Shown here in pieces: positions 477-48,509 of a DNA stretch of 64,000 nucleotides; positions within the stretch are counted from its first letter, which is position 1, and each line of letters begins with the position of its first letter. Both the position numbers and the translations under genes were made by a program. The notes below the pieces were generated by a model that worked only from the letters and a program-made list of their open reading frames with translations, had not been told where the DNA came from and searched no databases. The stretch comes from Nitrospirota bacterium (GTDB lineage: Bacteria > Nitrospirota > Thermodesulfovibrionia > UBA6902), in contig JBFLVX010000001.1 of NCBI GenBank assembly GCA_040758255.1, forward strand, positions 132 through 64,131, read 5' to 3'.

Positions 477-2063
477 ATGAAGAATATCCTCCGCCGCGCT
501 GCCCGCTCAATAACAGCGAAACTTATAGCCGCCGTAGGCTTGTTGATGATTGCGGGAAGCCTTATATTCTGGTACGCCATTCTGTACAAACAGGAAAAGG
601 ATATCATGTCAATAGCTGTAAAGTACGGCGTCTCTTTTATTGATTTTGTAAAAGAGAGCACACGCTACGGCATGCTCACCCGCCACAGATCAGATATTCA
701 GCAGACTCTTGAAGATATAGATCTGGCGGAAGGCGTTGAGAGGGTGCGTATCTTTGACCATACAGGAAAGATATTCTACTCTACCGATAGGCAGGATATA
801 GGCAATTCAGTGACAAAGACTTCCCTACCATGCAATGGGTGCCATTCAGACATTGAAAAATCATCTCAACTCCTCAAGGAGCCAAAGAAATGGGATAATT
901 ACAAAAAACCTGACGGGGTCACCGCCCTGAAACTCGTTGAGCCTATTTACAATGAGCCTGCCTGTTACACTGCCGACTGTCACGCGCACCGGGAAGGGCA
1001 GAAGATATTAGGCTTTGTAGAGGCTGACGCTTCGCTTGCTCTTCTTGACGAAGCCATGCTAAAACAGGAGTTAGCCGCAGCCGCATACGTGATCGTCTTC
1101 CTGCTGATGCTCTCCATAAGCATAGTTGTCATACTTTGGAAAATAGTCGCTAAGCCTGTCGGTGAGCTTTCTTACGGGATAAAGAAGGTATCCTCCGGAG
1201 ACCTTGATCATTCAGTTCCCGTAAAATCAAGAGATGAGATAGGATTGCTGGCGGCTTCGCTCAATTCCATGATAAAAGATCTGAAAGCTGCAAGGGATCA
1301 GAAGAATACATGGAGGCAGACACTTGAGGCAGAGGTCTCAAAAAAGGCTGAAGAGATACAGAAGACACATTGCGGCTTTTTGCAAACAGAAAAACTCGCA
1401 TCCCTCGGCAGGATGGCATCGGGGATAGCAAACGAGCTTAATATTCCCTTAAAGGAACTACTCGATTCCGCGCATTCATTAAAGAAGCGGCTCCCTTCCG
1501 GAAGCCCTGAGGCGGAAGACGTTGATGTAATAATTGAGCAGGCCGCGAGGGCTGAGAAGATAATAAGCAATTTTCATGACTTTACGAACGCAAAACCGTC
1601 CGAAAAAGGCAGTGTAGATATTTGCGCTCTGCTAAACAGGACAATATTCATCATAAAGAACCAGAAGAAGTTCCGTAATATCAGGATCAATGTTCTCACA
1701 GACGAGATACCTCTCTTTCCCTGCGGCGACCCCTCCCAGTTTCAACAGGTTTTTCTGAATATGCTTGTGAACGCTGCCGATGCCATGAATGAGACGGGTG
1801 AGATAACTGTTGAAATACGCAAAATAACGGAAGATGCGAAATCATATGTTGAAATAAATTTTACAGACACGGGTCCGGGGATAAAGGACGAGGATATGCC
1901 GAGATTATTTGAGCCGTTCTTCACAACCAAATCAACAGGGGAAAACACAGGGCTGGGGCTCTCTGTCAGTCACGGCATTGTCAAGCATCTTGGAGGATAT
2001 ATTAAGGTATTAAGCGAGATTGGCAAAGGCGCTACGTTTTCTGTTAGACTTCCGTTAACTTGA
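477..2063 (+). CDS. sensor histidine kinase: two TM helices flanking a periplasmic domain with a heme-c binding motif, then HAMP, HisKA and HATPase_c
   Basis: TM1 LIAAVGLLMIAGSLIFWYAILY and TM2 VIVFLLMLSISIVVILWKIV. Periplasmic segment contains CNGCH (canonical CXXCH) and CYTADCH (CX4CH variant). HAMP-like DEIGLLAASLNSMIKDL. H-box LASLGRMASGIANELNIPL. G-boxes DTGPGI and GLGLSVSHGIV. Confidence 0.85.
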   Translation: MKNILRRAARSITAKLIAAVGLLMIAGSLIFWYAILYKQEKDIMSIAVKYGVSFIDFVKESTRYGMLTRHRSDIQQTLEDIDLAEGVERVRIFDHTGKIFYSTDRQDIGNSVTKTSLPCNGCHSDIEKSSQLLKEPKKWDNYKKPDGVTALKLVEPIYNEPACYTADCHAHREGQKILGFVEADASLALLDEAMLKQELAAAAYVIVFLLMLSISIVVILWKIVAKPVGELSYGIKKVSSGDLDHSVPVKSRDEIGLLAASLNSMIKDLKAARDQKNTWRQTLEAEVSKKAEEIQKTHCGFLQTEKLASLGRMASGIANELNIPLKELLDSAHSLKKRLPSGSPEAEDVDVIIEQAARAEKIISNFHDFTNAKPSEKGSVDICALLNRTIFIIKNQKKFRNIRINVLTDEIPLFPCGDPSQFQQVFLNMLVNAADAMNETGEITVEIRKITEDAKSYVEINFTDTGPGIKDEDMPRLFEPFFTTKSTGENTGLGLSVSHGIVKHLGGYIKVLSEIGKGATFSVRLPLT

Positions 2064-2264: not shown

Positions 2265-2711
2265 ATGGATATAAACCGGACAATTGAAGGGAGTTTTCAG
2301 CTAATTGGAGGGGAGTTTACTAACGCCGGCGAATCATCAATGCAGCTTAAACAAAAGCTTACAGAGATTGAATTAGGCAGAGACATTATAAAGAAGGCTG
2401 CGATTGTGGCCTTTGAGGCAGAGATGAATGTAATAATTCATGCGGCTGCCGGGTGGCTGCGTTACTATATAACCAAAGATGAATTAAGGATCGTTATAGA
2501 GGATATGGGGCCGGGCATTGCAGATATTGAACTCGCGATGAAGGAGGGCTATTCCACCGCGCCCGAATGGGTAAAAAATATGGGGTGGGGAGCCGGTATG
2601 GGCATGGCAAACATGAAGAGGAATTGCGACGTAATGAGAGTTGATTCGGTTGTCGGAGAAGGAACAACTATTGATATTATTATAAATCTCACTAAAGGAG
2701 AAATTATATGA
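2265..2711 (+). CDS. histidine kinase-like ATPase (anti-sigma regulatory factor / GHKL fold), hydrogenase/NuoEFG-cluster associated type
   Basis: HATPase-like motifs EDMGPGI and VVGEGTTIDIII; small size of 148 aa; overlaps downstream DRTGG gene, so operon. Confidence 0.7.
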   Translation: MDINRTIEGSFQLIGGEFTNAGESSMQLKQKLTEIELGRDIIKKAAIVAFEAEMNVIIHAAAGWLRYYITKDELRIVIEDMGPGIADIELAMKEGYSTAPEWVKNMGWGAGMGMANMKRNCDVMRVDSVVGEGTTIDIIINLTKGEII

Positions 2712-3067
2712 AGCTCCAGGATCTGGCGGATAAATTATTTTTACATGCTGTGTCTTACGATAAAGGTCTCAGTAAAGATGTCTCCGGAGGTTACGTAAGC
2801 GACCTGCTCTCTGATGTGCTCGCAAATTGCGCAGAAGGCAGCGTCTGGATTACACTGCAGAAGCATACGAATATAGTGGCTGTTGCAAGCCTGAAGAACC
2901 TCGCAGGGATAATTATTGTCGGGGGAAGAGAGCTTGAAGAAGAGGTATTAAAGCAGGCCGAGGCTAAGGAAGTCACAATTATGACAACCCCTATGTCCGC
3001 CTTTGAAACAACAGGCATGATCTACCAGCTTCTGAATGAAAACAAAGGGTCTGAAGAAAGTTGCTGA
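2708..3067 (+). CDS. DRTGG domain protein
   Basis: IIIVGGRELEEEVLKQAEAKEVTIMTTPMSAFETTGMIYQL matches the DRTGG signature; 4-bp overlap with the upstream gene. Confidence 0.65.
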   Translation: MKLQDLADKLFLHAVSYDKGLSKDVSGGYVSDLLSDVLANCAEGSVWITLQKHTNIVAVASLKNLAGIIIVGGRELEEEVLKQAEAKEVTIMTTPMSAFETTGMIYQLLNENKGSEESC

Positions 3068-3804
3068 AAGAATTCAGGGCAGACCTGCACATTCACACAT
3101 GCCTCTCCCCATGCGCTGATCTTCATATGACCCCTTCAGCGATAGTGAAGAACGCCTCTGAAAACGGGCTTGATATCATAGCCATAACCGATCACAATTC
3201 AGCGGAGAACATTATTGGAACAAAGAAAGCCGCTGAAGGTGCAGGCTTAACAGTGCTTGCCGGTATGGAAGTCACCTCCTCAGAAGAGGTTCATATATTA
3301 GCGCTCTTCGATGACATAAAAGACGCTTTAAAACTGCAGGACATTGTATATAAACACCTCGCGTCAGACAGAGATTATGACGGCGGATTGGGCGAGCAGG
3401 TGGTGGTCAATGAAAAGGACGAGGTGATGGGTTTTAACAAGCATCTGCTTATAGGCGCAACATCTTTGACCACTCTATCTATTGTTAATATTATACATTC
3501 TCTTGGAGGGCTTTCCATCGCCTCTCATATTGACAGAGAAGGTTTCGGGATAATCTCCAAGCTTGGTTTTATACCGAAGGATTTGAACTTCGACGCTCTT
3601 GAAATATCCCCAAATACAGATAAAGAAAAAGCAGAAGGTTTATTCAGAGATTACAAATCCTTTCAATGGATCTCTTCCTCAGATGCGCATTATATTGAAG
3701 ATATAGGGAAAAGGAGAACAAGCTTCTTCATAAAAGAAGCAACATTAGCGGAAATGAGAGGAGCTTTAAGAAATACCGGCGGCAGAAGAGTTGAATGGGA
3801 ATAA
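3061..3804 (+). CDS. PHP-domain (polymerase/histidinol phosphatase-like) metal-dependent phosphoesterase
   Basis: N-terminal ADLHIHTCLSPCADLHMTPSAIVKNASENGLDIIAITDHNS with HxH and DH metal ligands typical of PHP domains. Confidence 0.75.
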   Translation: MLKEFRADLHIHTCLSPCADLHMTPSAIVKNASENGLDIIAITDHNSAENIIGTKKAAEGAGLTVLAGMEVTSSEEVHILALFDDIKDALKLQDIVYKHLASDRDYDGGLGEQVVVNEKDEVMGFNKHLLIGATSLTTLSIVNIIHSLGGLSIASHIDREGFGIISKLGFIPKDLNFDALEISPNTDKEKAEGLFRDYKSFQWISSSDAHYIEDIGKRRTSFFIKEATLAEMRGALRNTGGRRVEWE

Positions 3805-3948: not shown

Positions 3949-5556
3949 TTATCCGCCCTTCTTCCAGTAAGGGCTTGAGATATCTTCAAACACAGTAAGC
4001 GCTGCGACCGCTCCCTGCGAAACAGCGGTAACGATCTGCTTGACCCCTCCGGTGATATCCCCCGCTGCATATACAAGGGGCATGGATGTCCTCATGTGCC
4101 CGTCAACTTTCACATAACCTTCTTCGTCAAGTTCCAGCCCGATTTTCTTCGCTAAATCGTTATTGGGTTCATAACCTATTGCTATAAAAACGCCCTGTGC
4201 CGCCATATCCCTCTTATTCCCCGTTATTATGTCTTCAATCGTGACTTTTTCAACAACCGTTTTACCGTGGATTTCCTTCACAACACTGTTAAACAGAACA
4301 GGTATGTTCCTCTGAAACACACTCTGTTGAAGTCTCTCTTCAGCCCTGAAAGTATCTCTGCGGTGCACTAATGTCACATGCGCGCCGAGGCTGTCAAGAT
4401 AAAGGGCATCGGTCAAAGCGCTGTTCCCTCCGCCAACAACAATGACGTTCTTCCCGTCCTTAAAAAGGTATCCGTCACATGTAGCGCAATAGCTGACTCC
4501 CCTGCCCGCAAGGCTGGTCTCACCTGACGCATTGAGCGTCCTGCTGCCAGCGCCGGTTGCTATGATAATCGCCCTGGCATTGTATATTCCCCTTCCCGTA
4601 GCTACTTCAAAACCGTCTTTCTTTTTCTTTATCTCACTTACCCCGACTCCCTGAAGAAGGAGAGAGTATTCCAGTGTCTGTTTTACCATCATATCAACAA
4701 GCGTCCTGCCCGCGATCCTTGCAAAGCCGGGGTAATTTTCAACTACCGGGGTTATTGATATCTGCCCCCCGGCATTCGCGCTTTCAAACACTATGCTCTT
4801 AAGTCCGCTCCTCTCCGCGTACATGGCGGCTGTGAGTCCCGCGGGGCCTCCACCGATCACAACAATATCGTAATCCCTGAGATCCTGCCTTCCGGCGGGC
4901 ATGACATACTCTACGGGTTTTCCTTCAACTATGGACTCTATGAAATAATCCTCAGGGAGGAGCCCCGGCGCAATCAGTGTTTCACCGACAAAAGTTTTAG
5001 GAACGGACATAGCAGCATATTTTTCAGCAAGGTCCAAGTTCTCATAAATCTCAATAATCTCAACCGAAACCATATCTTTCTTCTCTATTACTGCCGATAC
5101 CGCATAGAGCACCTGCTGCGGACAGTAAGGACAGGTAGGGCTGACAAAGACGCGGACCTTCCTTTTTTCTGTAAGCCTCTCAAGCCGCTTTCTTGAATCA
5201 TCCGAAATAAAGTTCCTCCCCGTTGACGCCATTATTAAAGAGAGGACAAATGAACCGGCCTCTTCGCCTGCGGGAGCTCCGGTATAACGAATATTGTACT
5301 TATCAGGCGCTATAAGGATTGTAGGAGACCTTTCAATCCCGCGCTTCCTGGCGTGATCGTCCTTGAGCCTGTAAAAGTTCACCTTGATCTTGTCCGTAAG
5401 CTCGGGCATGACTTTCAGCAGGCTCACCGCAGCTTCATTGAACGGCTCATTCATACCCGCCTGAGTATAGACCTCGATCAGGACAGTATCTTTAAGCTGT
5501 TTAAACGCCTCACGCAGCGACCTCTTAATGTCTTCGTTGATAAGCTCTTTTTCCAT
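3949..5556 (-). CDS. AhpF-like NAD(P)H disulfide oxidoreductase: N-terminal thioredoxin/glutaredoxin-fold domain fused to a thioredoxin-reductase-like FAD/NAD(P) domain
   Basis: N-terminal CPYCP redox motif; FAD GxGxxG (IVVIGGGPAGLTAA); second dinucleotide fold VIVVGGGNSALTDA; redox-active CATCDG disulfide typical of TrxB/AhpF. Confidence 0.8.
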   Translation of the reverse strand: MEKELINEDIKRSLREAFKQLKDTVLIEVYTQAGMNEPFNEAAVSLLKVMPELTDKIKVNFYRLKDDHARKRGIERSPTILIAPDKYNIRYTGAPAGEEAGSFVLSLIMASTGRNFISDDSRKRLERLTEKRKVRVFVSPTCPYCPQQVLYAVSAVIEKKDMVSVEIIEIYENLDLAEKYAAMSVPKTFVGETLIAPGLLPEDYFIESIVEGKPVEYVMPAGRQDLRDYDIVVIGGGPAGLTAAMYAERSGLKSIVFESANAGGQISITPVVENYPGFARIAGRTLVDMMVKQTLEYSLLLQGVGVSEIKKKKDGFEVATGRGIYNARAIIIATGAGSRTLNASGETSLAGRGVSYCATCDGYLFKDGKNVIVVGGGNSALTDALYLDSLGAHVTLVHRRDTFRAEERLQQSVFQRNIPVLFNSVVKEIHGKTVVEKVTIEDIITGNKRDMAAQGVFIAIGYEPNNDLAKKIGLELDEEGYVKVDGHMRTSMPLVYAAGDITGGVKQIVTAVSQGAVAALTVFEDISSPYWKKGG

Positions 5557-5644: not shown

Positions 5645-5674
5645 AAGGGGAATAAACCGTGGTTTATTCCCCTT
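5645..5674 (-). terminator. intrinsic-terminator-like hairpin (about 13-bp GC-containing stem followed by U-rich tract on the minus strand) inside the 5' leader of the AhpF-like gene
   Basis: Seen directly: AAGGGGAATAAACC / GGTTTATTCCCCTT perfect inverted repeat, followed on the minus strand by TTTTGCTTATC. It sits about 90 nt upstream of the ATG at 5556 with no upstream minus-strand gene to terminate. Confidence 0.45.
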
Positions 5675-5909
5675 GCGTAACATACAAGTTGCCTATTAAC
5701 TATTTGTTACGGTATCACCTCAAAGGCGTCAAGGTCTATTAAATTTATTTGAAATTTTGCAGTTAATAAAAAATAGTGTTATAAAAATAGCATAGCTCTA
5801 TATGTATTTTGTCAACAAATATTTACCAAAAAAATTAAAATAAAAGTCAACAGGGTTGCGTCTTGAATCGTGCGTGACTAATTATAAAAATTTGGACTGC
5901 ATTAAATTT

Positions 5910-6461
5910 ATGGAAGACCTGTCCCTTCACATCCTTGACATCGTAGAAAACTCGATAACCGCAGGAGCTGCAAATATACGGATAAAGATCAATGAAGATA
6001 CCGGAGAGAACCTTCTTCTTATAGAGATAAGCGATAATGGCAAAGGCATGGATGAGGAGATGCTTAAAAATGCCCTCGACCCTTTTCATACCACAAGGAC
6101 AACCCGCAACGTAGGGCTCGGCATCCCCTTTCTTGCGGATGCGGCAAGGGATACCGGCGGGGATATTGCCATAAAGTCTGTGAAGGGAGAAGGCACAACC
6201 ATTACCGCAACTTTCCGGCATGATCATATTGACAGAAAGCCTCTTGGAGATATTGGGAAGACCCTGATAGTAATTATCGCCTCCAACCCTGACATTGATA
6301 TTCTCTTTGAGTATAAAAAAAACAATTCTGAATATATGCTGGATACGGCAGAGATAAAGAAGGATCTGGACGGCGTCCCGATAAATACGCCGGGGGTAAT
6401 AAAGGCTATTGAAAATGATTTAAAAGAATGGTTTAATAGTACCAACCTTATGATAAAATAG
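5910..6461 (+). CDS. second histidine kinase-like ATPase (GHKL fold) of the cluster
   Basis: LHILDIVENSITAGA N-box-like, DNGKGMD, GLGIPF, VKGEGTTITATF G-boxes. The supplied ORF starts at a TTG at 5856; the ATG at 5910 is the more likely start. Confidence 0.65.
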   Translation: MEDLSLHILDIVENSITAGAANIRIKINEDTGENLLLIEISDNGKGMDEEMLKNALDPFHTTRTTRNVGLGIPFLADAARDTGGDIAIKSVKGEGTTITATFRHDHIDRKPLGDIGKTLIVIIASNPDIDILFEYKKNNSEYMLDTAEIKKDLDGVPINTPGVIKAIENDLKEWFNSTNLMIK

Positions 6462-6526
6462 TACGACGCGTGATGATAAATTTTTAAGTTGCAGGCGTCG
6501 AAAGGCCTGCCGTAAGAGCAAAGACT

Positions 6527-7294
6527 ATGGAAAAACAGCGCATCTTAGTGCTTGATGACGACCCTGTTGTAACCCTGAGCTGCAAGAGGATTCTCAGCTC
6601 CGAGGGCTTCATCATCTCCACAGTGGAAAAAGGAGAAGACGCCCTCAATAAATTAGCTAAAGAGGATTTTGACCTCTTAATAACCGATGTAAAACTTCCC
6701 GATATAAGCGGGATGGAGGTCCTTAAAGAGGCTCGCATAATAAAGCCAAATACGGATGTGGTGATAATTACCGGCTATCCTAACCTTGAAGACGCAAAGG
6801 AATCAACAGGGCTCGGAGCCGCTGAATACATAGAGAAACCATTTACTCCTGACTTCATGATAAATGTCGCAAAGAAGGTCTTTGACAAGAGGGGATGGAT
6901 ACTCAGGCAGGCGTTTGTTGATGAATTCAGGGACTCTGTCGTATCGTTAAGGGACAGGGAAAATCCGGTCCTCTTTTATAAAGAAGGCACATGGTCAAGG
7001 CCCATTAAGGGCGGATTATGGGAGATGGGATGCGACCTCAGGTATTGGCTTCTGAGCGGGGAGCTTGCGTATGTTGATTTTATAAAAGGCGTTGATGAAC
7101 TGAAAGCCGGAGAACCGTTTGCAAGGATCTACACAAGCGCCGGACAATCCAATGAACTGCTTTCGCCTATGAGCGCAGAGATCAGAGAAGTGAATGTAAA
7201 AGCAAATGATGTCATGACCGCCCTGCTTAAAGAGCATTTGTCGGAAGGGTGGTTATTGTGGCTGGCAAGGGTATTTCCAAAAGGTAACGATTAA
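6527..7294 (+). CDS. response-regulator receiver domain fused to a glycine-cleavage-H-like (GcvH-fold) domain that lacks the lipoyl-lysine
   Basis: REC motifs: LVLDDDPVV, phospho-acceptor D in DLLITDVKLP, KP in IEKPF. The C-terminal 120 aa align by eye to GcvH (Y.KE..W, VDF..G..L.AGEP.A.I.S..........P.S.EI.EVN, GWLLWLA) but have SAGQS where the lipoylated K sits. Confidence 0.7.
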   Translation: MEKQRILVLDDDPVVTLSCKRILSSEGFIISTVEKGEDALNKLAKEDFDLLITDVKLPDISGMEVLKEARIIKPNTDVVIITGYPNLEDAKESTGLGAAEYIEKPFTPDFMINVAKKVFDKRGWILRQAFVDEFRDSVVSLRDRENPVLFYKEGTWSRPIKGGLWEMGCDLRYWLLSGELAYVDFIKGVDELKAGEPFARIYTSAGQSNELLSPMSAEIREVNVKANDVMTALLKEHLSEGWLLWLARVFPKGND

Positions 7295-7531: not shown

Positions 7532-8401
7532 ATGGCGGATAACGGGAAGATACTCGTTGTAGATGATGAACCGATAGTATTAAGGAGCTGTGAGAGGATA
7601 CTGAAATCGGAAGGGTACAGTATCGCCCTCGCCGCAGGCGGGCAGGAGGCGATAAATATCCTTCAAAAGGACGATTACGATCTGGTGATCACTGACCTGA
7701 AGATGCCTGAAGTTGACGGCATTGACTTGATAAAATGGCTGAGAAACTCAAAGCCGGCAACCGGGGTAGTTGTCATAACCGGCCATCCCTCGCAGGAGAC
7801 CATTAAAGATGCGCTTAATTTAGGCATAATTGACTACCTGCCGAAACCCTTTACCCCTCCGGTGCTTATAGATGTCACTGCAAAGGCCATGAAGATTACA
7901 ATGGTCAGGGCCTTGCCGGAAAAGACTCCTGAAGAGGATGAAGTTGAATCTAAGACCGCTGATCTTGAGAAGATCATAGCTGCAAACCGTAACAGGCCCG
8001 GAAGCCTTATCCCTGTTTTGCAGAAGGCTCAGGAGTTGATAGGATATCTCCCGCCGTCCGTTCAGAGGCATATAGCAAAAGGCCTGAATATTCCGGTCAG
8101 CGAAGTGCACGGCGTTGTCTCTTTCTATTCATTCTTCACAATGAAACCAAAAGGCAGGCATAGCGTAAAGGTTTGCCTTGGAACAGCCTGCTACGTAAAG
8201 AGGGCTGAAGAGATAATCGAAAAATTAAAAGCTACATTAAATATAAATGTCGGCGAGGTTACAAAAGACAGGAGATTCTCTCTTGAGAGTGTCAGGTGTC
8301 TCGGTGCATGCGGGCTGGCGCCAGTGGTCGTGATTGATCATGATACGCATGCATCTGTTGACCCTGTAAAGACTCCGGAGATACTTAAAGAATATGATTA
8401 A
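7532..8401 (+). CDS. response-regulator receiver domain fused to a NuoE/HoxE-like thioredoxin-fold [2Fe-2S] subunit (HndA-like)
   Basis: REC: VVDDEPIV, DLVITDLKMP, LPKPF. C-terminus: CLGTACYVKRAEEI ... VRCLGACGLAPVV, the four-Cys pattern of the 24-kDa NuoE family. Confidence 0.8.
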   Translation: MADNGKILVVDDEPIVLRSCERILKSEGYSIALAAGGQEAINILQKDDYDLVITDLKMPEVDGIDLIKWLRNSKPATGVVVITGHPSQETIKDALNLGIIDYLPKPFTPPVLIDVTAKAMKITMVRALPEKTPEEDEVESKTADLEKIIAANRNRPGSLIPVLQKAQELIGYLPPSVQRHIAKGLNIPVSEVHGVVSFYSFFTMKPKGRHSVKVCLGTACYVKRAEEIIEKLKATLNINVGEVTKDRRFSLESVRCLGACGLAPVVVIDHDTHASVDPVKTPEILKEYD

Positions 8402-8428: not shown

Positions 8429-8818
8429 TTGACAATGGCAAGATTAAAGATAGAAGATCTGCAAAGAATCAAGGATGAGCATAAGGCAGCTTCCACATTA
8501 AGAGAGGGCGGCTTCAGGGTAAAGATCACAGTGCACATGGGCACATGCGGCCTCGCGGCAGGAGCAAGAAATATAATGAGCGCATTGCTGGATGAGATTG
8601 AAAAGAGCGGCGTCACCGATGTCATTGCAACAACCTCGGGCTGCGCAGGGCTCTGCAGCCGCGAACCGATGGCAACAATAGAGGTAATCAACCAGCCGCC
8701 GGTCAAGTATGGATCTTTAACAGAGGATAAGATACGCAGAATATTTAAAGAGCATATTATCGGCGGGAATATTATTGAGGAATATGCGCTTGTTATAGGG
8801 AGCGAAACAGCGTATTAA
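8429..8818 (+). CDS. small thioredoxin-like [2Fe-2S] ferredoxin (HndB-like)
   Basis: VHMGTCGLAAGA ... TSGCAGLCSREP cysteine arrangement of NuoE-like 2Fe-2S domains; 129 aa; positioned between NuoE-like and NuoF-like genes as in hnd/hyd operons. Confidence 0.7.
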   Translation: MTMARLKIEDLQRIKDEHKAASTLREGGFRVKITVHMGTCGLAAGARNIMSALLDEIEKSGVTDVIATTSGCAGLCSREPMATIEVINQPPVKYGSLTEDKIRRIFKEHIIGGNIIEEYALVIGSETAY

Positions 8819-8890: not shown

Positions 8891-10723
8891 ATGCAGAAAT
8901 ATCGCGCAAATTTAATGATGTGTGCAGGGACAGGTTGTGTTGCCTGCGGCGCTCTTAAGATAAAAGACGCGCTTAAGGCAGAGCTTAAGGCCAAAAACCT
9001 TGAGGATGAAATCCAGATAGTCCTCACAGGCTGTAACGGCTTTTGCTCCAACGGCCCTATTATGGCTGTATTTCCCGACGGCATCTTCTATCAAAAGCTC
9101 AAACCTGAAGATATCCCTCTTCTTGTTGAAGAGCACCTCTTAAAAGGCCGGCCTGTGGAAAAATTTATGTATCAGGAGCCGGAGAAGAAGACCAAGGTGC
9201 CTGCGATGAAGGATATCCCTTTCTTCAACCTCCAGGTTTTAAGAGCGCTTAGAAATAAAGGGATGATAGACCCTGAGAAGATAGAGGACTACATTGCAAG
9301 AGACGGGTATCAGGCAGCGGCAAAGGCGCTCTTGCATATGACATCAGAAGAAATTGTAAAAGAGATAAAGGATTCAGGTATCAGAGGCAGGGGAGGCGCG
9401 GGTTTCCCGACAGGGCTGAAGTGGGAGTTCTGCTCAAAAGTTAAGTCGGACATTAAGTATATCCTCTGCAACGGCGACGAAGGCGACCCCGGAGCATTTA
9501 TGGACAGGAGCGTTATGGAGGCAGACCCTCATGTTGTGTTAGAGGGGATGATCATCGGAGCAAAGGCGATCGGGGCGACTATGGGTTATATATATGTGAG
9601 GGCAGAGTACCCCCTTGCTGTCAAGAGGCTCCAGATCGCGATTGATCAGGCAAAGGAAGCCGGGCTTCTTGGAGAGAACATTCTTGACAGCGGCTTCAGC
9701 CTGAATATAGAGATATATGAAGGAGCAGGAGCATTTGTATGCGGTGAGGAGACCGCGCTCATGCGTTCAATTGAGGGCAAGCGCGGTATGCCGAGACCAA
9801 GGCCGCCCTTCCCTGCTGTTAAAGGCCTGTGGGACAAACCTACAGTGCTTAACAATGTTGAGACATTCGCAAATATACCGCCCATAATCCTTAACGGAGC
9901 GGAGTGGTTCAGGAGTCTCGGCACCGAAAAGAGCACGGGCACAAAGGTCTTTGCGCTCACCGGAGCTGTAAATAATATCGGCCTTATAGAAGTGCCTATG
10001 GGCATACCTTTAAGGACTATCATATATGACATCGGCGGGGGGATTAAGAACAACAGAAAATTCAAGGCTGTTCAGCTTGGAGGGCCATCCGGCGGATGCA
10101 TACCTGAAAGCCTCCTCGACACACCTGTAGATTATGAATCAATCAATGCAACAGGCGCCATTGTAGGCTCCGGCGGCATGGTTGTCATGGACGATTCAAA
10201 CTGCATGGTAGGCATGGCAAAATTCTTCCTTGAGTTTACCGCTGAGGAGTCATGCGGAAAATGTCCGCCGTGCAGAGTGGGAACAAAGGTGATGCTTGAT
10301 ATGCTGACCGAAATTTCAGAAGGCAGGGGGAAAGAAGGGGATATGGAACTGCTTCAGGACCTTTCAGCAGACATTATCAACACCTCTCTTTGCGGCCTTG
10401 GGCAGACCGCTCCAAACCCTGTGCTTACAACGATAAAGTACTTCAGGGATGAGTATGAATCGCACATCAAGGATAAATGGTGCAAAGCCGGAGTATGTAA
10501 AACACTAACGACATTTTATATAGATGAAGCACTGTGCAAAGGATGCGGGCTCTGCTTAAGGGCGTGCCCCAAAGGCGCAATCACAGGGGAGAAGAAGCAG
10601 CCGCATAAGATAGATAACGAGCTATGCATCAAGTGCCGCTCGTGTTATGTGGCCTGCCCCGTGAAATTCGGCGCGGTAAAGATTGGCCCGGGGAATATGA
10701 CGGTTGCGGCGGAGAGTAAATAA
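8891..10723 (+). CDS. NuoF-like NAD(P)H-binding flavoprotein subunit (HndC/HydB/FdhB type) with N-terminal 2Fe-2S domain and C-terminal 2x[4Fe-4S] ferredoxin domain
   Basis: FMN site GRGGAGFPTGLKW, NADH site GEETALM, N3 cluster ESCGKCPPCR, C-terminal CKGCGLCLRACP and CIKCRSCYVACP, N-terminal CAGTGC...C NuoE-like domain. Confidence 0.9.
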   Translation: MQKYRANLMMCAGTGCVACGALKIKDALKAELKAKNLEDEIQIVLTGCNGFCSNGPIMAVFPDGIFYQKLKPEDIPLLVEEHLLKGRPVEKFMYQEPEKKTKVPAMKDIPFFNLQVLRALRNKGMIDPEKIEDYIARDGYQAAAKALLHMTSEEIVKEIKDSGIRGRGGAGFPTGLKWEFCSKVKSDIKYILCNGDEGDPGAFMDRSVMEADPHVVLEGMIIGAKAIGATMGYIYVRAEYPLAVKRLQIAIDQAKEAGLLGENILDSGFSLNIEIYEGAGAFVCGEETALMRSIEGKRGMPRPRPPFPAVKGLWDKPTVLNNVETFANIPPIILNGAEWFRSLGTEKSTGTKVFALTGAVNNIGLIEVPMGIPLRTIIYDIGGGIKNNRKFKAVQLGGPSGGCIPESLLDTPVDYESINATGAIVGSGGMVVMDDSNCMVGMAKFFLEFTAEESCGKCPPCRVGTKVMLDMLTEISEGRGKEGDMELLQDLSADIINTSLCGLGQTAPNPVLTTIKYFRDEYESHIKDKWCKAGVCKTLTTFYIDEALCKGCGLCLRACPKGAITGEKKQPHKIDNELCIKCRSCYVACPVKFGAVKIGPGNMTVAAESK

Positions 10724-10726
10724 TAT

Positions 10727-13177
10727 ATGATAACGCTCACTATAAACGGTAAAAAGGTTGTTGTTACAGAAGGCACCACGATCCTTGAGGCAGCCCTGCA
10801 GAACGGGATCGAGATCCCAAACCTCTGCTATGACAAGCGCCTCTCACCTTACGGCGCGTGCCGCCTCTGTGTTGTTGAGGTCGAGGGGCAGAAGAAGCTG
10901 CTGGCAGCATGTTCAACGCCGGTAACAGAGGGGATGGAGGTTAAGACAGAGACGCCGAAACTCTTCAAGGCGAGACAGACCGTGCTTGAGCTTCTTCTTG
11001 TCCACCACCCTCTTGACTGCCCCGTATGCGATAAGGCAGGGGAATGCAAGCTTCAGGACCTTGCGTTCAAGTACTGTTCCACCAAGAGCCGCTTTAAGGG
11101 AGAGAAGAAGCATGAGCTTGTTGACACTGGCAGCCCGATTGTAGAGAGAAACCCGAACAGGTGCATACTCTGCGGCAAGTGCGTAAGGGTCTGCGGCGAA
11201 TTACAGGGGGTAGGAGCCATAAACCTCCTGGGACGCGGCTTCGCCTCAAAGATAAGCCCTGCATTTGAAGAGACTCTTGACTGCGAATTCTGCGGCCAGT
11301 GTATAGACGCGTGCCCTGTCGGCGCGCTTGGCAGCAAGCCTTATAAATACAGCTCAAGGGCCTGGTTCCTTGAAGCGCATGACAACATCTGCCCCTACTG
11401 CGGTGTCGGATGCACTGTAACATATGACATCAGGGAAGGGAAGATAATCAGGGCAAAGGGAATAGAAGGCAGGGGAATAAACGAGGGCAACTTATGCGTT
11501 AAGGGAAGGTTCGGTTTTGATTACATCTACTCGAAGAACCGCCTGAAGACCCCGCTGATAAAAGAAGGCGACGGTTTTAAGAGCGTATCTTGGGAAGAGG
11601 CGCTGAACCATATCGCCAGGAAACTCAAGGCGATCAAAGATGCGCATGGCGCTGACGCGATCGGAGCGATAGGCTCTCCAAGATGCACGGTTGAAGACAA
11701 CTTCATGCTGAGGAAGTTTATGAAAGATGTAATCGGAAGCGACAATATAGATTCTTCATCAAGGTTCGGATACGCGAAGATACAGCGTGCCGTTGAGATG
11801 GCGTTCGGGCTTGAATCCCTGCCTGTAGATTTTAACTCTCCAATTGGGAAAGAAGCGATTCTGATAATAGAGTCCGACATCACCTCAACCCATCCTGTCT
11901 GGGGATTAAATTTCCTGAAGGCACAACGCAAAGGTTCATTCCTTATTACAGCAGACACCCGCGAGACAAAACTCACGCGGCACAGCAGCCGATGGCTCAG
12001 GCTGAAGCCCGGAACCGGGGCTGCGCTTATTAACGGGATCATAAAGATAGCCCTTGATGAGGGGCTGTATGATAAAGAGAAGGCCTCACATATTCCGGGA
12101 CTCTCTTTTCTCTCTGACAGCGTAAAAGAATACACCTCGAAAAAGGTTTCAGATATCACCGGCATTGCAGAAGATGTTTTCGTCAATACTGCGAAGAGAT
12201 TTCTCACTGCAGGCTCAAGGCTTATTGCGCTTACAATAGGGGCTGCTGAAGATACAAAGGGGCTGAATACAGCTCTTGCCGCAGCCAACCTGCTCCTGCT
12301 TATAGGTGAAGGGCCTGCGAGCATTCAGATGCCCGCTGAATACTGCAATACCTTTGGTATGTGGCACAAAGGATTGAGGCAGGGAAGATCAGGCAGGGAT
12401 ATTATATCCATGCTTTACGGTGAGGATACGGTCAAAGCTTTATATATTATGGGAGAGAACCCCGCTGTCACATTCCCTGACGCAACAACTATTGATAAAA
12501 CCCTTCGCGGCCTCGACTTTCTTGTTGTGCAGGATATAATGCTTACAGAGACCGCCAAGCTGGCAGACGTGGTGCTTCCTGCCGCAAGCTGGGCGGAAAA
12601 AGAGGGGACATTTATCTGCGCTGAGGGCATTGAACAGAAGGTGCAGAAGATAAGCCAGACCGAAGGAGAGCCTGTGCCTGACTGGCAAATTTTGAGAAAC
12701 CTCTCAAGGGCTATGGGTTTTGAGGTCGGGGCAAAGAACATAACAGCTCTTCAGGATGAGATAAATGAGATAAAGACCGAAGAGAGAACCGCTGAGACGA
12801 TCTTCAACCCAGTTGAATATATCCCCGGAGAAGAGCCGGATGCCGATTACCCTCTTGTGATGATAACAGGCAACCTCATGCAGCATTCAGGGGCGTTATC
12901 AGTCATGTCCCGGAGCCTGAGCCATGTGCTTGCAGATGCGTTTCTTCAGATAAGTAACGCTGACGCTGAAAAATACAATGTCCGCGATGAAGGCTTTGTG
13001 AAGGTAACTTCAAGAAGAGGCTCTGTTATGGTAAAGGCAAGGCTCTCCGATGAAGTGCCTGAAGGCAGCGTCTTCCTTCCAATTCATTTCCCGCATGCAA
13101 AGATAAATACGCTTACGCGCTTGTCCTTGAACGGCGAAGCGCCGCTCAGCGCTGTAAAGATTGAAGCGGTGAAGTAA
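10727..13177 (+). CDS. NuoG-like Fe-S / molybdopterin-oxidoreductase-fold subunit; catalytic Cys/Sec-His of formate dehydrogenases not present
   Basis: N-terminal 2Fe-2S (CYDKRLSPYGACRLC), His-ligated cluster HHPLDCPVCDKAGECKLQ, CILCGKCVRVCGE and CEFCGQCIDACPVG, Mo-domain 4Fe-4S CPYCGVGCTV. At the position of FdhF ARVUHGPS it has SRFGYAKI. C-terminal molybdopterin_binding-like domain present. Confidence 0.85.
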   Translation: MITLTINGKKVVVTEGTTILEAALQNGIEIPNLCYDKRLSPYGACRLCVVEVEGQKKLLAACSTPVTEGMEVKTETPKLFKARQTVLELLLVHHPLDCPVCDKAGECKLQDLAFKYCSTKSRFKGEKKHELVDTGSPIVERNPNRCILCGKCVRVCGELQGVGAINLLGRGFASKISPAFEETLDCEFCGQCIDACPVGALGSKPYKYSSRAWFLEAHDNICPYCGVGCTVTYDIREGKIIRAKGIEGRGINEGNLCVKGRFGFDYIYSKNRLKTPLIKEGDGFKSVSWEEALNHIARKLKAIKDAHGADAIGAIGSPRCTVEDNFMLRKFMKDVIGSDNIDSSSRFGYAKIQRAVEMAFGLESLPVDFNSPIGKEAILIIESDITSTHPVWGLNFLKAQRKGSFLITADTRETKLTRHSSRWLRLKPGTGAALINGIIKIALDEGLYDKEKASHIPGLSFLSDSVKEYTSKKVSDITGIAEDVFVNTAKRFLTAGSRLIALTIGAAEDTKGLNTALAAANLLLLIGEGPASIQMPAEYCNTFGMWHKGLRQGRSGRDIISMLYGEDTVKALYIMGENPAVTFPDATTIDKTLRGLDFLVVQDIMLTETAKLADVVLPAASWAEKEGTFICAEGIEQKVQKISQTEGEPVPDWQILRNLSRAMGFEVGAKNITALQDEINEIKTEERTAETIFNPVEYIPGEEPDADYPLVMITGNLMQHSGALSVMSRSLSHVLADAFLQISNADAEKYNVRDEGFVKVTSRRGSVMVKARLSDEVPEGSVFLPIHFPHAKINTLTRLSLNGEAPLSAVKIEAVK

Positions 13178-37300: not shown

Positions 37301-39788
37301 CCTGAGAAAAGAAGAGCATGCCCCTTAGAAGATTCTCTGCCAGGAACTCTTCGCCGATCTTTTCAAGTATATCTGCACGCGCAAACTGCGCCCTGTCTTT
37401 CTCTCTTCCGTCAGAGCCATGCATTATGTTTGTCCATAGCTGAAGCGCGTCAACCAACTCGCCATTCTTTTCAGCCGTTTCCGCATTGGTAATAAGTCCG
37501 GCGATATCTGTCTGAGAAAGGATTGAACTCTTGGCCTCAGGTTTTATTGGAGGAGCTATTCCTGCAATCACTGTCTTCTCCATGTAATTTAGAAAACGGG
37601 TCAGAGTCAGGAGGTGATTGGAGAGCTCTATTTCAGATATCGCCTCTTTCTCAAGAAGGGGCAGCGGTAAAATTATCTTCTGGCCTGTGTAAATCCTGTC
37701 TATATCTTTAACTTCAGGATTAAATTCCTTGAAGATGCCAATATACTTCTTCATGATAATATCTTCCGGCAGCCTTAATTCTCTCTTTAGAATATTAATC
37801 AGCACCTCGTCTTTTTTAACAACGTATATATGCTGAGCATATCCTTCGGATCGCAGCGTCTCATGCAAGGATGCGGACGGTCCGTGAAGCAGGGATGCCT
37901 CAGAGACGCTGGCTAAAGATTTGATAAGGAGATTATAAGGATCATTCACCTTCTTTAAGAAGTCCAGGAACTCGGTTTCTGACAATTGATACGGCCTTGA
38001 AGAGCGGTACTGAAGCGCTGCTACGCTGCCGGCAAGAGAATTCGATGACCATAATTTAACCTCCTTGACATCCTGTGGAAGAGGTATCTCGGCGAACGCA
38101 GCCTTTATCAATCGGCCGACAGGCTCTCTTGCGCTGAAGGCTCCGCTCAGGGTTGTATCGGTCAAAGAAAGGACATCTCTCGCTTTAATTATCTTAAGCG
38201 CATTCTCTGCTGTATTTGCCATATACCGGCTTTTCGTGAGGCCTTCCTCTTTTGTGATGAGCATCTTAACAGGCTGCATATCATCAAGCTGTACAATAAT
38301 CTCCTGCCCGTCAATCGTTGTCTCCGCATCAACGATCACCCTGAGAAACGAAGGAGCAAACCGTTGAGGAAGGCTGTATCTTTGAATAAGCGGCTCGCTT
38401 TCAGTCCCTGAAGGAATAGGGATAAAAAGAGAGCGTGAAAGAGTCTTCAGCCCGTCATCAAGGTGCTGCTTTAAAACGAGCGCCTCATCAGGCTGCTGCG
38501 GCTCATTTAGCGCAGGAGTCATAAACCAGCAAAACTCCTGCGGCTCCCTGCTTAATTTATTTGAAGGCATGAGGTCGCGGTAAAATGTATGAGAAAGAAA
38601 TATCTCCTCCGCCTCTTTCTTCACCTCAGGATGATCAGGACGCTCAATGCCTTTCTGATCCATAAGCATGACAGCGGCAATGCCGCCCTCGCGCCTGCTG
38701 TTGTCCCGCCAGAGAAGTGCCGCGCTCTTTTTTGAGAGCGGCTCTTGCGCTCTCGCGGCATCCTGAAGCTCTTCATCGTTTATATCCCATGCAGATTTTC
38801 TAAGCATAGAGGGGGAACCTTCTTCCCTTGCCTCTTTTGCCGATACATCGGGCTCGTTTGCTCCTGCAAAGAGGTAATCAGGCGACTCCTGTTTTAAGAG
38901 CCTGATATACAGCGGTGCAGTTGTCTCCATCTCAAATGTATGCTCGCCCTCCGGTATCTCTATGTAAGCTGTCTCCTCACGACCGACCGCCTCGGGAAAT
39001 CCGTTCACAAAAGTTGTTGCGATCTCAGGCTTTGTCTCAAATTCAAGGGTCTGGAACGGGCGGTCATCAATCTTTAGATAGATATTGTATGACTGCGCCC
39101 TCCTGCTCTCGGGAGAGGGATAAGCGATGCGGCTTTCAATCGCCACCCTCTGAGCCTCTTTTGTGCTGAATGATACAGGCTCATGGGGTTTGATAAGCTT
39201 AAAGTTCTTCTCAACAGATCTTCCGCTGCGGTGAATGCGGGCGAACTTTCCGGGCAGGCTTATCATCCTGCGGTATGGGGCTATCTCATCCTGCGTCTCA
39301 TGGCGCGAGATAAAAAAGGCTATTTTTATGCCCTCGTCTTTATCAGGCTTACGGCTTACGCGCACGAGCGAAGGCTCCCTGTTTAAAGGAGAGAATATTA
39401 TTGATTTTAAGTCCGCAGAGAATTGATAAGGCAGAAATGAATAGGCTCCGGAGCCGTTTGAGACTGCAAGTTCAATGTCGTCAATAGAGAATTCGCATTC
39501 AGGATTATAAATACGCGCTGTCTCGCCGGAAGGAACCCTGAAGGTTACAAACTCTCCGGGCTTAAGCTCAGCCATATGAAGACCAGCATCGTAATTATAA
39601 GAAAGCTTCTTGCCGCTTACCCATTGCGGCGGCCCCTCTATATTATCCCAGCGCAAAGGCAGGTCATACTGCTTAAGAAGCCTTAACTGAAGATCGTCAA
39701 GCTTGGCGATGCTCCCTAAGGGAACCAGTATCAGGCAAAGAATCGTTAAGCAGAAAATCGCGGATTTCAGTTTTCCGTGTCTATTCAA
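34362..39788 (-). CDS. giant (1808 aa) secreted protein with signal peptide, LysM-like segment, TPR-like helical repeats and a beta-strand-rich C-terminal region ending in Tyr (possible outer-membrane export scaffold)
   Basis: Signal MNRHGKLKSAIFCLTILCLILVPLGSIA; LysM-like YVVKKDEVLINILKRELRLPEDIIMKKYIGIFKEFNPEVKDIDRIYTGQKIILPL; alternating-hydrophobic C-terminal 400 aa; 20-nt overlap with the PgsB-like gene downstream. Confidence 0.55.
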   Translation of the reverse strand: MNRHGKLKSAIFCLTILCLILVPLGSIAKLDDLQLRLLKQYDLPLRWDNIEGPPQWVSGKKLSYNYDAGLHMAELKPGEFVTFRVPSGETARIYNPECEFSIDDIELAVSNGSGAYSFLPYQFSADLKSIIFSPLNREPSLVRVSRKPDKDEGIKIAFFISRHETQDEIAPYRRMISLPGKFARIHRSGRSVEKNFKLIKPHEPVSFSTKEAQRVAIESRIAYPSPESRRAQSYNIYLKIDDRPFQTLEFETKPEIATTFVNGFPEAVGREETAYIEIPEGEHTFEMETTAPLYIRLLKQESPDYLFAGANEPDVSAKEAREEGSPSMLRKSAWDINDEELQDAARAQEPLSKKSAALLWRDNSRREGGIAAVMLMDQKGIERPDHPEVKKEAEEIFLSHTFYRDLMPSNKLSREPQEFCWFMTPALNEPQQPDEALVLKQHLDDGLKTLSRSLFIPIPSGTESEPLIQRYSLPQRFAPSFLRVIVDAETTIDGQEIIVQLDDMQPVKMLITKEEGLTKSRYMANTAENALKIIKARDVLSLTDTTLSGAFSAREPVGRLIKAAFAEIPLPQDVKEVKLWSSNSLAGSVAALQYRSSRPYQLSETEFLDFLKKVNDPYNLLIKSLASVSEASLLHGPSASLHETLRSEGYAQHIYVVKKDEVLINILKRELRLPEDIIMKKYIGIFKEFNPEVKDIDRIYTGQKIILPLPLLEKEAISEIELSNHLLTLTRFLNYMEKTVIAGIAPPIKPEAKSSILSQTDIAGLITNAETAEKNGELVDALQLWTNIMHGSDGREKDRAQFARADILEKIGEEFLAENLLRGMLFFSQEEQTREEALIKLTDFYRKRSDSEGLLSLFAAAAIRQPDYKKFVALSELLTENSEYEMALALGLLLPEPEQPLQAMIKSAHKAGWWKVFETLVEKIKETEEGHYWRGLKLEKDGDYTNAIYHLRRAGAKGMERASAIEKAVSIRSDLTGNSSDLTEWERWQAQHPQPFIWEEAPYIVTDYAGAANLYNKERDMYSRAFISQKDRPVKLTLMGPVSIRIEARPLHTDKSAEPLDGWLEIRGQGSLKVLPISNNVPSQNLVISGSEGMTPGIKAVAEYNVGAGLHHIEVSGGDMPLLIQTYIKSPEIRIGVLPPITPDTLAALTNGKIVGESECPVNEADATPALIDNDPANEVLKQMITLLWIAEKRPEQRSHALAKAEELSLKHPYAHGTRPLLNRIFRGTTLMPYRNIQSSAGVRMIEEKGWDPFSPGLRIRKALLSPVSPDEHVLYGYDSEIIYMKNLQSKEIQVTATIEDVGYLPLLPMTGYFQLDSERVDNINLAEGRQKTVLLMKIPAGEHFLRIGIKEPVPNQFLRMHIAEVKKGKEISVWDRPVELQYYIATEEEPVVMEIEGPSVLQIEELSNGKIYEGYRKIEEGWQTVKIPARDGQKETLYRFYRRGVKDEPVTPVRKYIAESEPKPEPLISPASPKVSAYLKLKDDYPLGGQEDGTWTLSGEFVERRNLQEDSNFQDGLEEFIELKATYRSFDDLRRTLFRTDMLGRIREFGGPTLGLKGSLDWRPINSSLDFQFGGSLYLQYPDKFLSGQREWSVLLNAKAAKRIELGTKTFHVPSLAVFQRYLSMESYGSYIPEKVDQDIFTPYKFGHKRGLILTDTLNYRPWLDTNLYLGASVVSNEDMDIFNPDNISLRAGWRQLIGAFQVNAEYRRNHYLSDDDRNNSSDRERVELEVLWEKWSKSERRLELGLDLIHELDTGVNSGMIFLRWHMGNGRGLRDFNYGEIDFLDIRERRVPSERNNTIEDAEERY

Positions 39789-48137: not shown

Positions 48138-48509
48138 CTAAAGACTCTTCAGCTTTTCACAGAGTGTTGTTAAAGCAACAGGTTTGTACACTATATCTGT
48201 TGCTCCTGCTTTAAATATCTCCTCCCGGACTTTTTCATCATGGACAGAGGTTAAGACCATGACCGGCAGAGCCATCTTTTGCTCCTCCCTTAGCCAGCGG
48301 ATGAAACGCATGCCGTCCATATACGGCATCATCATGTCGCATACTATTATATCAACGCTCTCTTTTTGCAGGATCTCAATCGCCTTGAGGCCGTGATCAG
48401 CAGTGAGGGTCTCATATCCTTCCAACTGCAGCATGGCAGCCAGAAGCTGCTGTATGGCTTTGTCGTCCTCAACAAGCAGAACCCTTTTTTTACGGGCAGT
48501 CTCAGTCAA
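48138..48509 (-). CDS. single-domain CheY-like response regulator
   Basis: VLLVEDDKAI, phospho-acceptor in DIIVCDMMMP, LTSVHDEK, KAGATDIVYKP. Confidence 0.85.
   Translation of the reverse strand: MTETARKKRVLLVEDDKAIQQLLAAMLQLEGYETLTADHGLKAIEILQKESVDIIVCDMMMPYMDGMRFIRWLREEQKMALPVMVLTSVHDEKVREEIFKAGATDIVYKPVALTTLCEKLKSL

Follow-up and report, generated by a model that had tools for sequence, protein, structure and literature searches.

The H-proteins of the glycine cleavage system (GcvH) are about 125 to 130 amino acids long and are completed by a C-terminal helix. Their barrel-sandwich fold (PF01597/COG0509; e.g., 3A7A from E. coli and 1DXM from pea) bears the lipoyl lysine within an ESVKA motif. 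Lysine-less barrel-sandwich domains of the same hybrid-motif superfold are found at the N termini of RnfC (RnfC_N; PF13375) and NqrA, which place this type of domain within NADH-dependent redox complexes. On the signaling side, CheY and RssB are receiver proteins with a non-DNA output, in which the receiver governs a protein-protein interaction; RssB is an adaptor that combines its receiver with an inactive PP2C-like domain, i.e., an enzyme fold devoid of catalytic activity. The H-protein fold itself has been deployed for signaling in GcvH-L of Streptococcus and Staphylococcus (PDB 5A35), an H-like protein involved in stress signaling rather than in glycine cleavage, which works with a sirtuin/macrodomain pair (PMC12440151, PMC11490716). 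Among redox enzymes, the closest described systems for the present locus are HydABC and BfuABC (PMC9304861); according to a figure legend of that paper, Bfu gene clusters carry genes for processing or regulatory proteins, while word searches of the paper return no mention of a receiver or a kinase.

In the window (the whole 64,000-nucleotide stretch of DNA analyzed here), we find a gene whose product, hereafter the REC-GcvH-like protein, joins these threads in a distinct way. It shares with GcvH the barrel-sandwich fold and a detectable homology but differs in being fused to a receiver, in having glycine in place of the lipoyl lysine, a hairpin one residue longer and no C-terminal helix, in lacking gcvT or gcvP neighbors, and in scoring below the Pfam gathering threshold. 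GcvH-L, in contrast, retains the lysine and is lipoylated, and has neither a receiver nor a link to a NuoEFG-type enzyme. Compared to CheY and RssB, the REC-GcvH-like protein differs in its output fold and presumed target, with the role of adaptor being putative. In their domain composition, the adjacent NuoE-, NuoF- and NuoG-like genes match the HydC/HydB type of HydABC/BfuABC, including the extra clusters of NuoF, but the large subunit lacks the catalytic residues of both hydrogenases and formate dehydrogenases. In the literature that we searched, no paper describes the fusion of a receiver to GcvH or to NuoE, or the accessory GHKL, DRTGG and PHP genes found alongside them. The features of the locus are collected in Table 1.

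Table 1. Genes and sequence features of the REC-GcvH-like locus (positions are those of the window)
Feature	Position	Strand	Basis
HAMP histidine kinase	477..2063	+	Pfam, translation
SpoIIAB-like small GHKL ATPase	2265-2711	+	Pfam; NCBIfam spIIAB 53.9 bits
DRTGG protein	2708-3067	+	Pfam, NCBIfam
PHP phosphoesterase	3061-3804	+	Pfam, NCBIfam
AhpF/TrxR-like flavoprotein	3949-5556	-	
Stand-alone GHKL ATPase	5911..6461	+	Pfam HATPase_c, E 5.6e-16
REC-GcvH-like response regulator gene	6527..7294 (stop codon included)	+	ORF list, translation; 255 aa
Receiver (REC), residues 1-120	6527..6886	+	Pfam PF00072, E 1.5e-25
Phospho-acceptor Asp54 codon	6686-6688	+	
Long helix, residues 108-137 (REC helix alpha-5 prolonged through the linker between the domains)	6848..6937	+	AlphaFold2
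GcvH-fold domain, residues 138-251, without lipoyl lysine or C-terminal helix	6938..7279	+	
Hairpin tip S204-A205-G206-Q207-S208	7136..7150	+	Alignments to GcvH
Gly206 codon, at the lipoyl-lysine position	7142-7144	+	
REC-NuoE/HoxE/HydC-type [2Fe-2S] subunit	7532..8401	+	Response_reg E 4e-32, 2Fe-2S_thioredx E 9e-50
Small thioredoxin-like [2Fe-2S] ferredoxin, read as HydD-like	8429..8818	+	Weak Pfam/NCBIfam matches
NuoF-like flavoprotein, HydB/BfuB architecture	8891..10723	+	Pfam; NCBIfam nuoF_fam 511 bits
NuoG-like/FdsA-like subunit, 816 aa, molybdopterin-type domain	10727..13177	+	Pfam; NCBIfam NuoG 474.5 bits

The Pfam Response_reg profile covers residues 6 to 113 of the REC-GcvH-like protein, and the window protein possesses the full set of residues Asp10, Asp11, Asp54, Thr82 and Lys104. 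In an alignment of 88 sequences, comprising 79 species-level genome loci, the window protein and 8 divergent representatives, each of these five positions is kept in 84 to 86 members. On the evidence of these residues, the protein is a bona fide two-component response regulator with a canonical, phosphorylatable receiver. Degenerate receivers are confined to three divergent members of the family, all of which retain the H-fold domain. In the full-length AlphaFold2 model (pLDDT 88.2), the receiver is connected to the C-terminal domain by the long helix of residues 108 to 137, with an interdomain geometry that is uncertain at a pTM of 0.61. Searches with Pfam and NCBIfam detected no HTH, Fis or sigma-54 AAA+ domain in the protein. 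The opposite strand contains two short ORFs (6484-6738, 7016-7237) that fall within this well-conserved gene.

The assignment of the C-terminal region to the GcvH fold is built on several concurring lines of evidence. For the single sequence, the evidence is weak, because the match to the Pfam GCV_H profile (PF01597; residues 176 to 245, 18.4 bits, E 0.0021) lies below the gathering score of 22.2; a phmmer search with residues 120 to 255 against all PDB sequences recovers 12 matches, every one of them an H-protein, with a best E-value of 0.0014. Relatives give much stronger signals: the same Pfam profile is matched at E<=0.01 by 21 of 24 family members (best E 1.2e-25), and a profile of the most divergent members finds ordinary GcvH proteins, such as those from Psychrobacillus and Myxococcota, with E-values of 1e-22 to 1e-11. 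The profile alignment that the first-pass annotation had proposed as a check, run with hhalign between a profile of 8 diverse members and E. coli GcvH, confirms the fold with a probability of 97.2% and an E-value of 4.5e-11 over 98 columns (E. coli GcvH residues 6 to 104). An AlphaFold2 model of residues 136 to 255 (pLDDT 88.7, pTM 0.83) was further compared to the PDB with Foldseek: the top 22 matches are all H-proteins (E 8e-6 to 1e-3, TM 0.60 to 0.69), and the next match follows only after a jump to an E-value of 0.1. Neither a match to PF13375 nor a closest structural likeness to the N-terminal domains of RnfC or NqrA was found for this domain. The GcvH-like domain recognized in the first reading is thus borne out by homology searches and models alike, with some refinement of its extent: rather than the entire last 120 residues, it occupies about residues 138 to 251, is joined to the receiver by the long helix, and ends without the C-terminal helix. 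The alignments stop at residue 104 of the 129 of E. coli GcvH, and the full-length model ends in a strand (residues 242 to 251), with the protein itself stopping at residue 255. Hence, as judged from sequence comparisons and models, the C-terminal region of about 115 amino acids is a true but divergent and truncated version of the GcvH fold.

In every alignment to GcvH, the lipoyl lysine (K64 in E. coli) lies opposite Gly206, in agreement with the initial observation that the modifiable lysine is replaced within an SAGQS tip. This position is occupied by glycine in 85, arginine in 2 and serine in 1 of the 88 members, and never by lysine. The hairpin as a whole conforms to the motif A-[RK]-[IVL]-[YLF]-[ST]-[SG]-[SGT]-G-[QKEH], with Ser or Thr at position 203 in 84 of the 88. 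Lysine is altogether absent from hairpin positions 203 to 208 in 72 of the 88 sequences, among them the window protein, and its only recurrent occurrence within the hairpin is at position 207 (15/88). A conserved lipoylation site is therefore excluded for the family. That the protein does not serve as a lipoyl carrier, as already suggested in the first-pass annotation, finds good support in the family-wide glycine at the acceptor position and in the lack of any other conserved lysine in the hairpin.

Homologs of the REC-GcvH-like protein number 608, of which the best 120 are all at least 77% identical to it and come from Nitrospirota MAGs; metagenomes contribute hundreds of close relatives. 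Clustering at 50% leaves just 26 clusters with a match to the C-terminal domain (E<=1e-3), among them a few true GcvH proteins and one membrane-anchored lineage. Scanning a single genome from each GTDB species yields 170 genomes with a relative, a count that covers members fitting two subfamily-specific peptide patterns. Of these 170, the best 80 mostly carry the label of Nitrospirota or Thermodesulfovibrionia MAGs, with Candidatus Sulfobium among them, and two groundwater Nitrospirae MAGs (L001 and L002) carry a gene 99% identical to that of the window. The exceptions among the best 80 are several records that are unclassified ("Bacterium BMS3..." and "uncultured bacterium") or probably mislabeled ("Deferribacteres bacterium" and "Nitrospira japonica"). 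The family occurs mainly in Thermodesulfovibrionia MAGs. Public naming of the protein is inconsistent or wrong: a 96% identical protein (P0001) is named "Fis family transcriptional regulator" at NCBI, while the JGI name is [quoted passage not shown] which shows that automated annotation does recognize the two-domain architecture. In another lysine-poor GcvH-like lineage, the gene neighbors a membrane redox module of the Fe-S/NrfD type as well as a two-component system, a setting that counts in favor of the proposal made below.

Within the family, 31 unsaturated pairs (Nei-Gojobori) give the receiver a median dN/dS of 0.044 and the H-fold domain one of 0.075, values that are rough given a dS of about 1.6, near saturation. 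As estimated from these ratios, both domains are constrained, with the C-terminal domain being under strong purifying selection; it also displays many near-invariant surface residues, with E166, D170, R172, W174, N223, N227 and E240 among the conserved surface positions. A dN/dS of about 0.075 argues that the H-fold output domain is not vestigial.

A tblastn survey of 80 loci with the proteins of the window cluster reveals a strongly conserved setting. Wherever 3.6 kb or more of sequence is available downstream of the REC-GcvH-like gene, as it is in 58 species-level loci, this gene is followed by the gene for the REC-NuoE subunit, either within 400 bp (50/58) or beyond a 2.5-kb insertion of NfnA/NfnB-like genes (8/58), with no locus lacking REC-NuoE. 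The downstream order across these 58 loci is REC-NuoE, HydD-like ferredoxin, NuoF and NuoG-like, the ferredoxin gene being syntenic in all of them. The stand-alone GHKL ATPase is the immediate upstream neighbor in 44 of 77 loci; in the window, its ORF is listed from position 5856, and a comparison to the homolog in L003 points to the ATG at 5911 as the likely start. The genes for the small ATPase, the DRTGG protein and the PHP phosphoesterase are conserved in the cluster, lying either upstream or, as in the Sulfobium-type loci, downstream of the enzyme genes. The association extends to divergent members, which are 41 to 54% (P0130, P0125) or ~29% (P0131, P0143) identical to the REC-GcvH-like protein; the full-length identity of such members that retain the neighbors is about 40 to 54%. 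In one such locus (L082), the REC-GcvH-like gene is followed by the genes for the small ATPase, the DRTGG protein, REC-NuoE and NuoF; in others, for which short contigs limit the context visible (L081 and L083 to L085), REC-NuoE lies 3' of the REC-GcvH-like gene (L085), the kinase lies upstream of it (L083), or the small ATPase directly follows it (L084). The co-occurrence analysis envisaged in the first-pass annotation thus places NuoEFG-like genes beside the REC-GcvH-like gene in 58 of 58 loci and in divergent members as well, and a functional link between the protein and the NuoEFG-like module, as read from gene order, is strongly supported.

In the window, the REC-GcvH-like gene and that of REC-NuoE are separated by a gap of 237 bp that holds a sigma-70-like match, so that co-transcription of the two is uncertain. 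A scan for sigma-70 promoters and terminators between positions 5500 and 8000 gave nothing above chance, a search for sigma-54 promoters gave no match near the operon and fewer matches overall than expected by chance, and an Rfam scan of the whole window gave no match. Among the cluster genes and the other window ORFs scanned, we found no gcvT, gcvP, lpd, lipoate ligase or biotin ligase genes. The AhpF/TrxR-like flavoprotein encoded on the opposite strand, the sole flavoprotein disulfide reductase in the vicinity, was considered as an L-protein-like partner and ruled out, as it is missing from L002 despite the 99% identical REC-GcvH-like gene of that locus; in the other 79 loci, a search for it returned a single weak match of 27%, situated elsewhere in the cluster of L055.

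The adjacent enzyme genes are predicted to encode a soluble flavo-iron-sulfur module of the HydABC/Bfu-like, NuoE-HydD-NuoF-NuoG type. The REC-GcvH-like gene stands first in this conserved putative operon, and the receiver fused to NuoE is closely related to its own. At its N terminus, the NuoF-like subunit bears an extra [2Fe-2S] domain, and at its C terminus a 2x[4Fe-4S] domain. The large subunit is closest to FdsA, the subunit of NAD-dependent formate dehydrogenases (E 1e-123 to 1e-127). The identity of a formate dehydrogenase was nevertheless rejected: the ARVCHSP motif of R. capsulatus FdsA aligns with SRFGYAK, so that the molybdenum-ligand Cys and the catalytic His are replaced by Gly-Tyr, and among the NCBIfam models the Fdh-alpha cutoff is missed (447 versus 666), whereas that of NuoG is passed (474.5 versus 470). 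With a HydB/BfuB-type NuoF, a HydC-type NuoE and a NuoG-like large subunit, the label of a NuoEFG-like module that had been applied to this set is a fair one.

The cluster also offers a candidate for the input to the receivers. In the kinase encoded upstream, a periplasmic domain with the motifs CNGCH and CYTADCH lies between two transmembrane segments and is followed by HAMP, HisKA and HATPase domains. At least 36 related loci encode this kinase within the cluster; in the full-length orthologs, the periplasmic CxxCH motif is kept in 35 of 36 and the Cx4CH motif in 36 of 36. The CxxCH motifs suggest a heme-c redox sensor kinase, and its place in the cluster makes it the likely cognate sensor kinase of the REC-GcvH-like protein. 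In Sulfobium-type loci, the gene order is kinase, CheY-like receiver, NtrC-type sigma-54 regulator, REC-GcvH-like gene and REC-NuoE. All the receivers of the cluster have in common an alpha-1 signature (PVV..SC.RIL..EG[FY]) and a KPFTP motif, neither of which is present in an unrelated control receiver of the window (48138-48509); between the two cluster receivers of the window, identity reaches 44%, but it is only 24% to this control. The common alpha-1 signature is plausibly the pattern expected if one kinase feeds several receivers. Because Sulfobium-type clusters possess a separate NtrC-type regulator, a non-transcriptional role is left for the two unusual receivers, namely those of the REC-GcvH-like protein and REC-NuoE.

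Taking these observations together, we propose that the REC-GcvH-like protein might be a phosphorylation-switched protein-binding module acting on the NuoEFG-like redox complex, a reading to which we assign a probability of roughly 45%. Under this proposal, the membrane kinase of the cluster would sense the periplasmic redox state through its heme-c-type CxxCH domain and would phosphorylate both receivers, that of the REC-GcvH-like protein and that of REC-NuoE. Phosphorylation would then alter the binding of the H-fold domain to a protein partner, most likely the NuoEFG-like complex, perhaps helped by pairing between the two receivers, so that the activity or the assembly of the enzyme could be switched post-translationally and not via transcription. 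In this chain, we infer that the kinase passes its phosphate on, that the protein binds the complex, and that activity changes accordingly. Synteny suggests, rather than proves, a direct regulation of the iron-sulfur complex, and the adaptor function put forward in the first-pass annotation is a plausible, if unproven, interpretation that is consistent with the data. The partner may also be another product of the cluster, for instance the neighboring stand-alone GHKL ATPase or the kinase itself. A more specific version of the proposal draws on the RnfC analogy: as the catalytic core of RnfC is NuoF-like, an H-fold sitting on a NuoF-type subunit would have a possible parallel there. The periplasmic heme-type kinase might then directly and post-translationally control the cytoplasmic, NADH-dependent HydABC/Bfu-like enzyme via REC-NuoE together with the pseudo-H-protein, which upon phosphorylation would dock on NuoF in the manner of RnfC_N; we regard this scenario as unlikely. 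If true, such docking would gate the access of NADH or ferredoxin, or the attachment of the module to a membrane complex.

Several alternatives to this proposal need to be weighed against the same evidence. The accessory genes raise the prospect of partner switching, wherein the H-fold domain would be acted on or bound by the serine-kinase-like GHKL ATPases in conjunction with the DRTGG and PHP proteins, the receiver would add a two-component input, and the redox complex would be regulated only indirectly. The frequent position of the stand-alone ATPase immediately upstream (44/77 loci), the conservation in the cluster of the SpoIIAB-like ATPase (53.9 bits to spIIAB), DRTGG and PHP genes, and the placement of the small ATPase directly after the REC-GcvH-like gene in L082 and L084 are all compatible with this, as is the hairpin rich in conserved Ser/Thr, with position 203 being one of these in 84 of 88 members. 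Adjacency to the ATPases is, however, not universal, the set being downstream in Sulfobium-type loci, whereas adjacency to REC-NuoE is; moreover, Ser/Thr203 corresponds to the structural Ser of the ESVK motif of GcvH and is perhaps merely inherited. We know of no kinase activity for these GHKL ATPases, and on balance we consider partner switching improbable. One kinase encoded along with two to four receivers of the same alpha-1 signature could also indicate that the REC-GcvH-like protein is a phosphate sink or competitor, which would tune the flow from the kinase to REC-NuoE or the NtrC-type regulator, with the C-terminal domain being only structural. Branched two-component pathways with sink receivers are well known, but the low dN/dS of the C-terminal domain (~0.075) and its many near-invariant surface residues speak against a passive role. 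Further, since the three members with degenerate receivers retain the H-fold, this domain is likely to have a function of its own, leaving a sink in our estimation quite improbable.

Two further readings take the protein away from protein binding altogether, and both are contradicted by the sequence evidence. As the fold is that of a swinging-arm carrier and a lysine is found beside the tip, at position 207, in 15 of the 88 members, a prosthetic group or other modification might be covalently attached at a non-canonical residue to serve the neighboring oxidoreductases. Yet the tip itself is glycine, 72 of the 88 sequences, the window protein included, have no lysine at all between positions 203 and 208, neither lipoate or biotin ligase nor gcvT/gcvP genes were found among the ORFs scanned, and the adjoining AhpF/TrxR-like flavoprotein is not conserved, all of which makes such a carrier very improbable. 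A transcription factor, as the public name of P0001 would have it, finds some resonance in the likeness of the receiver to those of the NtrC/FixJ type. This annotation was rejected, as no DNA-binding domain was found with Pfam: HTH, Fis and AAA+ domains are absent, the GcvH fold accounts for the entire C-terminal half, and related clusters encode a separate NtrC-type regulator; we hence deem a role in DNA binding exceedingly improbable.

The REC-GcvH-like protein is a response regulator with an unusual pseudo-carrier output that belongs to the GcvH superfamily by both homology and fold. Whereas the majority of response regulators exert their effect on transcription, the two receivers of this cluster appear to be wired into a redox enzyme, one fused to NuoE and the other to a cofactor-less H-protein fold. 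The family is known from uncultured lineages. If the link to the NuoEFG-like module is functional, an enzyme of energy metabolism would clearly be under two-component control at the level of the protein, in the widespread Nitrospirota that cycle sulfur and sulfate in the subsurface, and a swinging-arm carrier fold would have been converted, in bacteria, to a module that serves interaction only.

The NuoE/HoxE/HydC-type [2Fe-2S] subunit encoded downstream of the REC-GcvH-like gene (a receiver joined to a lysine-less GcvH-fold domain) possesses its own N-terminal receiver, with matches to both Response_reg (E 4e-32) and 2Fe-2S_thioredx (E 9e-50). The fusion of a two-component receiver directly to a redox-enzyme subunit seems unusual, and no description of a receiver-NuoE fusion was found in the literature searched. 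The NuoG/FdsA-like large subunit of the same enzyme displays Gly-Tyr (SRFGYAK) in place of the formate dehydrogenase Cys-His pair, whereas Rhodobacter capsulatus FdsA has ARVCHSP at that site. The layout of the enzyme genes varies among related loci: in eight of them (L003, L035, L043, L047, L054, L055, L071, and L073), about 2.5 kb separates the REC-GcvH-like gene from REC-NuoE; in L003, the one locus whose spacer was examined, this segment codes for two proteins resembling NfnA and NfnB, 277 and 482 aa long. A second NuoF copy follows the NuoG-like gene in L003, L043, and L054.

Locations of the features discussed (window coordinates unless a related locus, L plus number, is named)
Feature	Location	Strand	Remark
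HAMP histidine kinase	477-2063	+	CNGCH and CYTADCH occur in the periplasmic domain
SpoIIAB-like GHKL ATPase, DRTGG protein, PHP phosphoesterase, second GHKL ATPase	2265-3804 and 5911-6461	+	
AhpF/thioredoxin-reductase-like gene	3949-5556	-	thioredoxin-like domains and Pyr_redox_2
Hairpin	5645-5674		strong; intergenic
REC-NuoE	7532-8401	+	domain matches
NuoG/FdsA-like subunit	10727-13177	+	molybdopterin-type domains retained
Receiver-PilZ fusion	29472-30176	+	PilZ binds c-di-GMP
Large ORFs, first pair	30188-39788	-	1397 and 1808 aa
Large ORFs, second pair	42416-48128	-	821 and 1087 aa
Spacer	L003 10468-12751		NfnA/NfnB-like pair
CheY-like receiver and NtrC-type sigma-54 regulator	L080 7520-9369		between kinase and REC-GcvH-like gene
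Separate GcvH-like lineage	L086 6001-13464		

The genes for the two GHKL ATPases, the DRTGG protein, and the PHP phosphoesterase stay together and accompany the enzyme genes, preceding them in some loci and following them in others; this set might constitute a partner-switching or phosphorylation module. Between the PHP gene and the GHKL ATPase gene of the window, the AhpF-like gene forms an opposite-strand insertion, and the hairpin stands upstream of its start in the neighbouring intergenic stretch; locus L002, whose REC-GcvH-like gene is 99% identical, is without it at the corresponding position.

The public homologue of the REC-GcvH-like protein, P0001 (96% identical), bears the name “Fis family transcriptional regulator”; this looks like a misannotation, since the protein has neither a Fis nor an HTH domain. 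A separate GcvH-like lineage, found in L086, has Gly or Asp at the canonical lysine position, with a Lys one residue later. One of its members (529 aa) combines a large N-terminal region, which we read as putatively binding-protein-like, with a putative transmembrane segment and then the GcvH-like domain; the other (231 aa) is membrane anchored. Their genes flank those for Fer4_11 and NrfD proteins, and genes for a HAMP kinase and for a sigma-54 regulator come next.

Elsewhere in the window, the receiver-PilZ fusion represents another unusual response regulator. There are also two pairs of very large adjoining ORFs; in a Pfam scan covering one of each pair, the 1397-aa ORF gave only a weak HEAT-repeat match and the 821-aa ORF gave none. 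The neighbourhood includes DUF1016, DUF6602, HNH, and AddAB-like genes, so the ORFs may belong to a region concerned with defence or mobility.

Among orthologues of the kinase, the periplasmic CxxCH motif is kept in 35 of 36 and Cx4CH in all 36, a conservation which suggests that the domain is a redox sensor with covalently bound heme. The CheY-like receiver and NtrC-type regulator are a feature of Sulfobium-type clusters; with these additions, one kinase is accompanied by up to four receivers sharing the same alpha-1 signature, the motif common to the receivers of the cluster.
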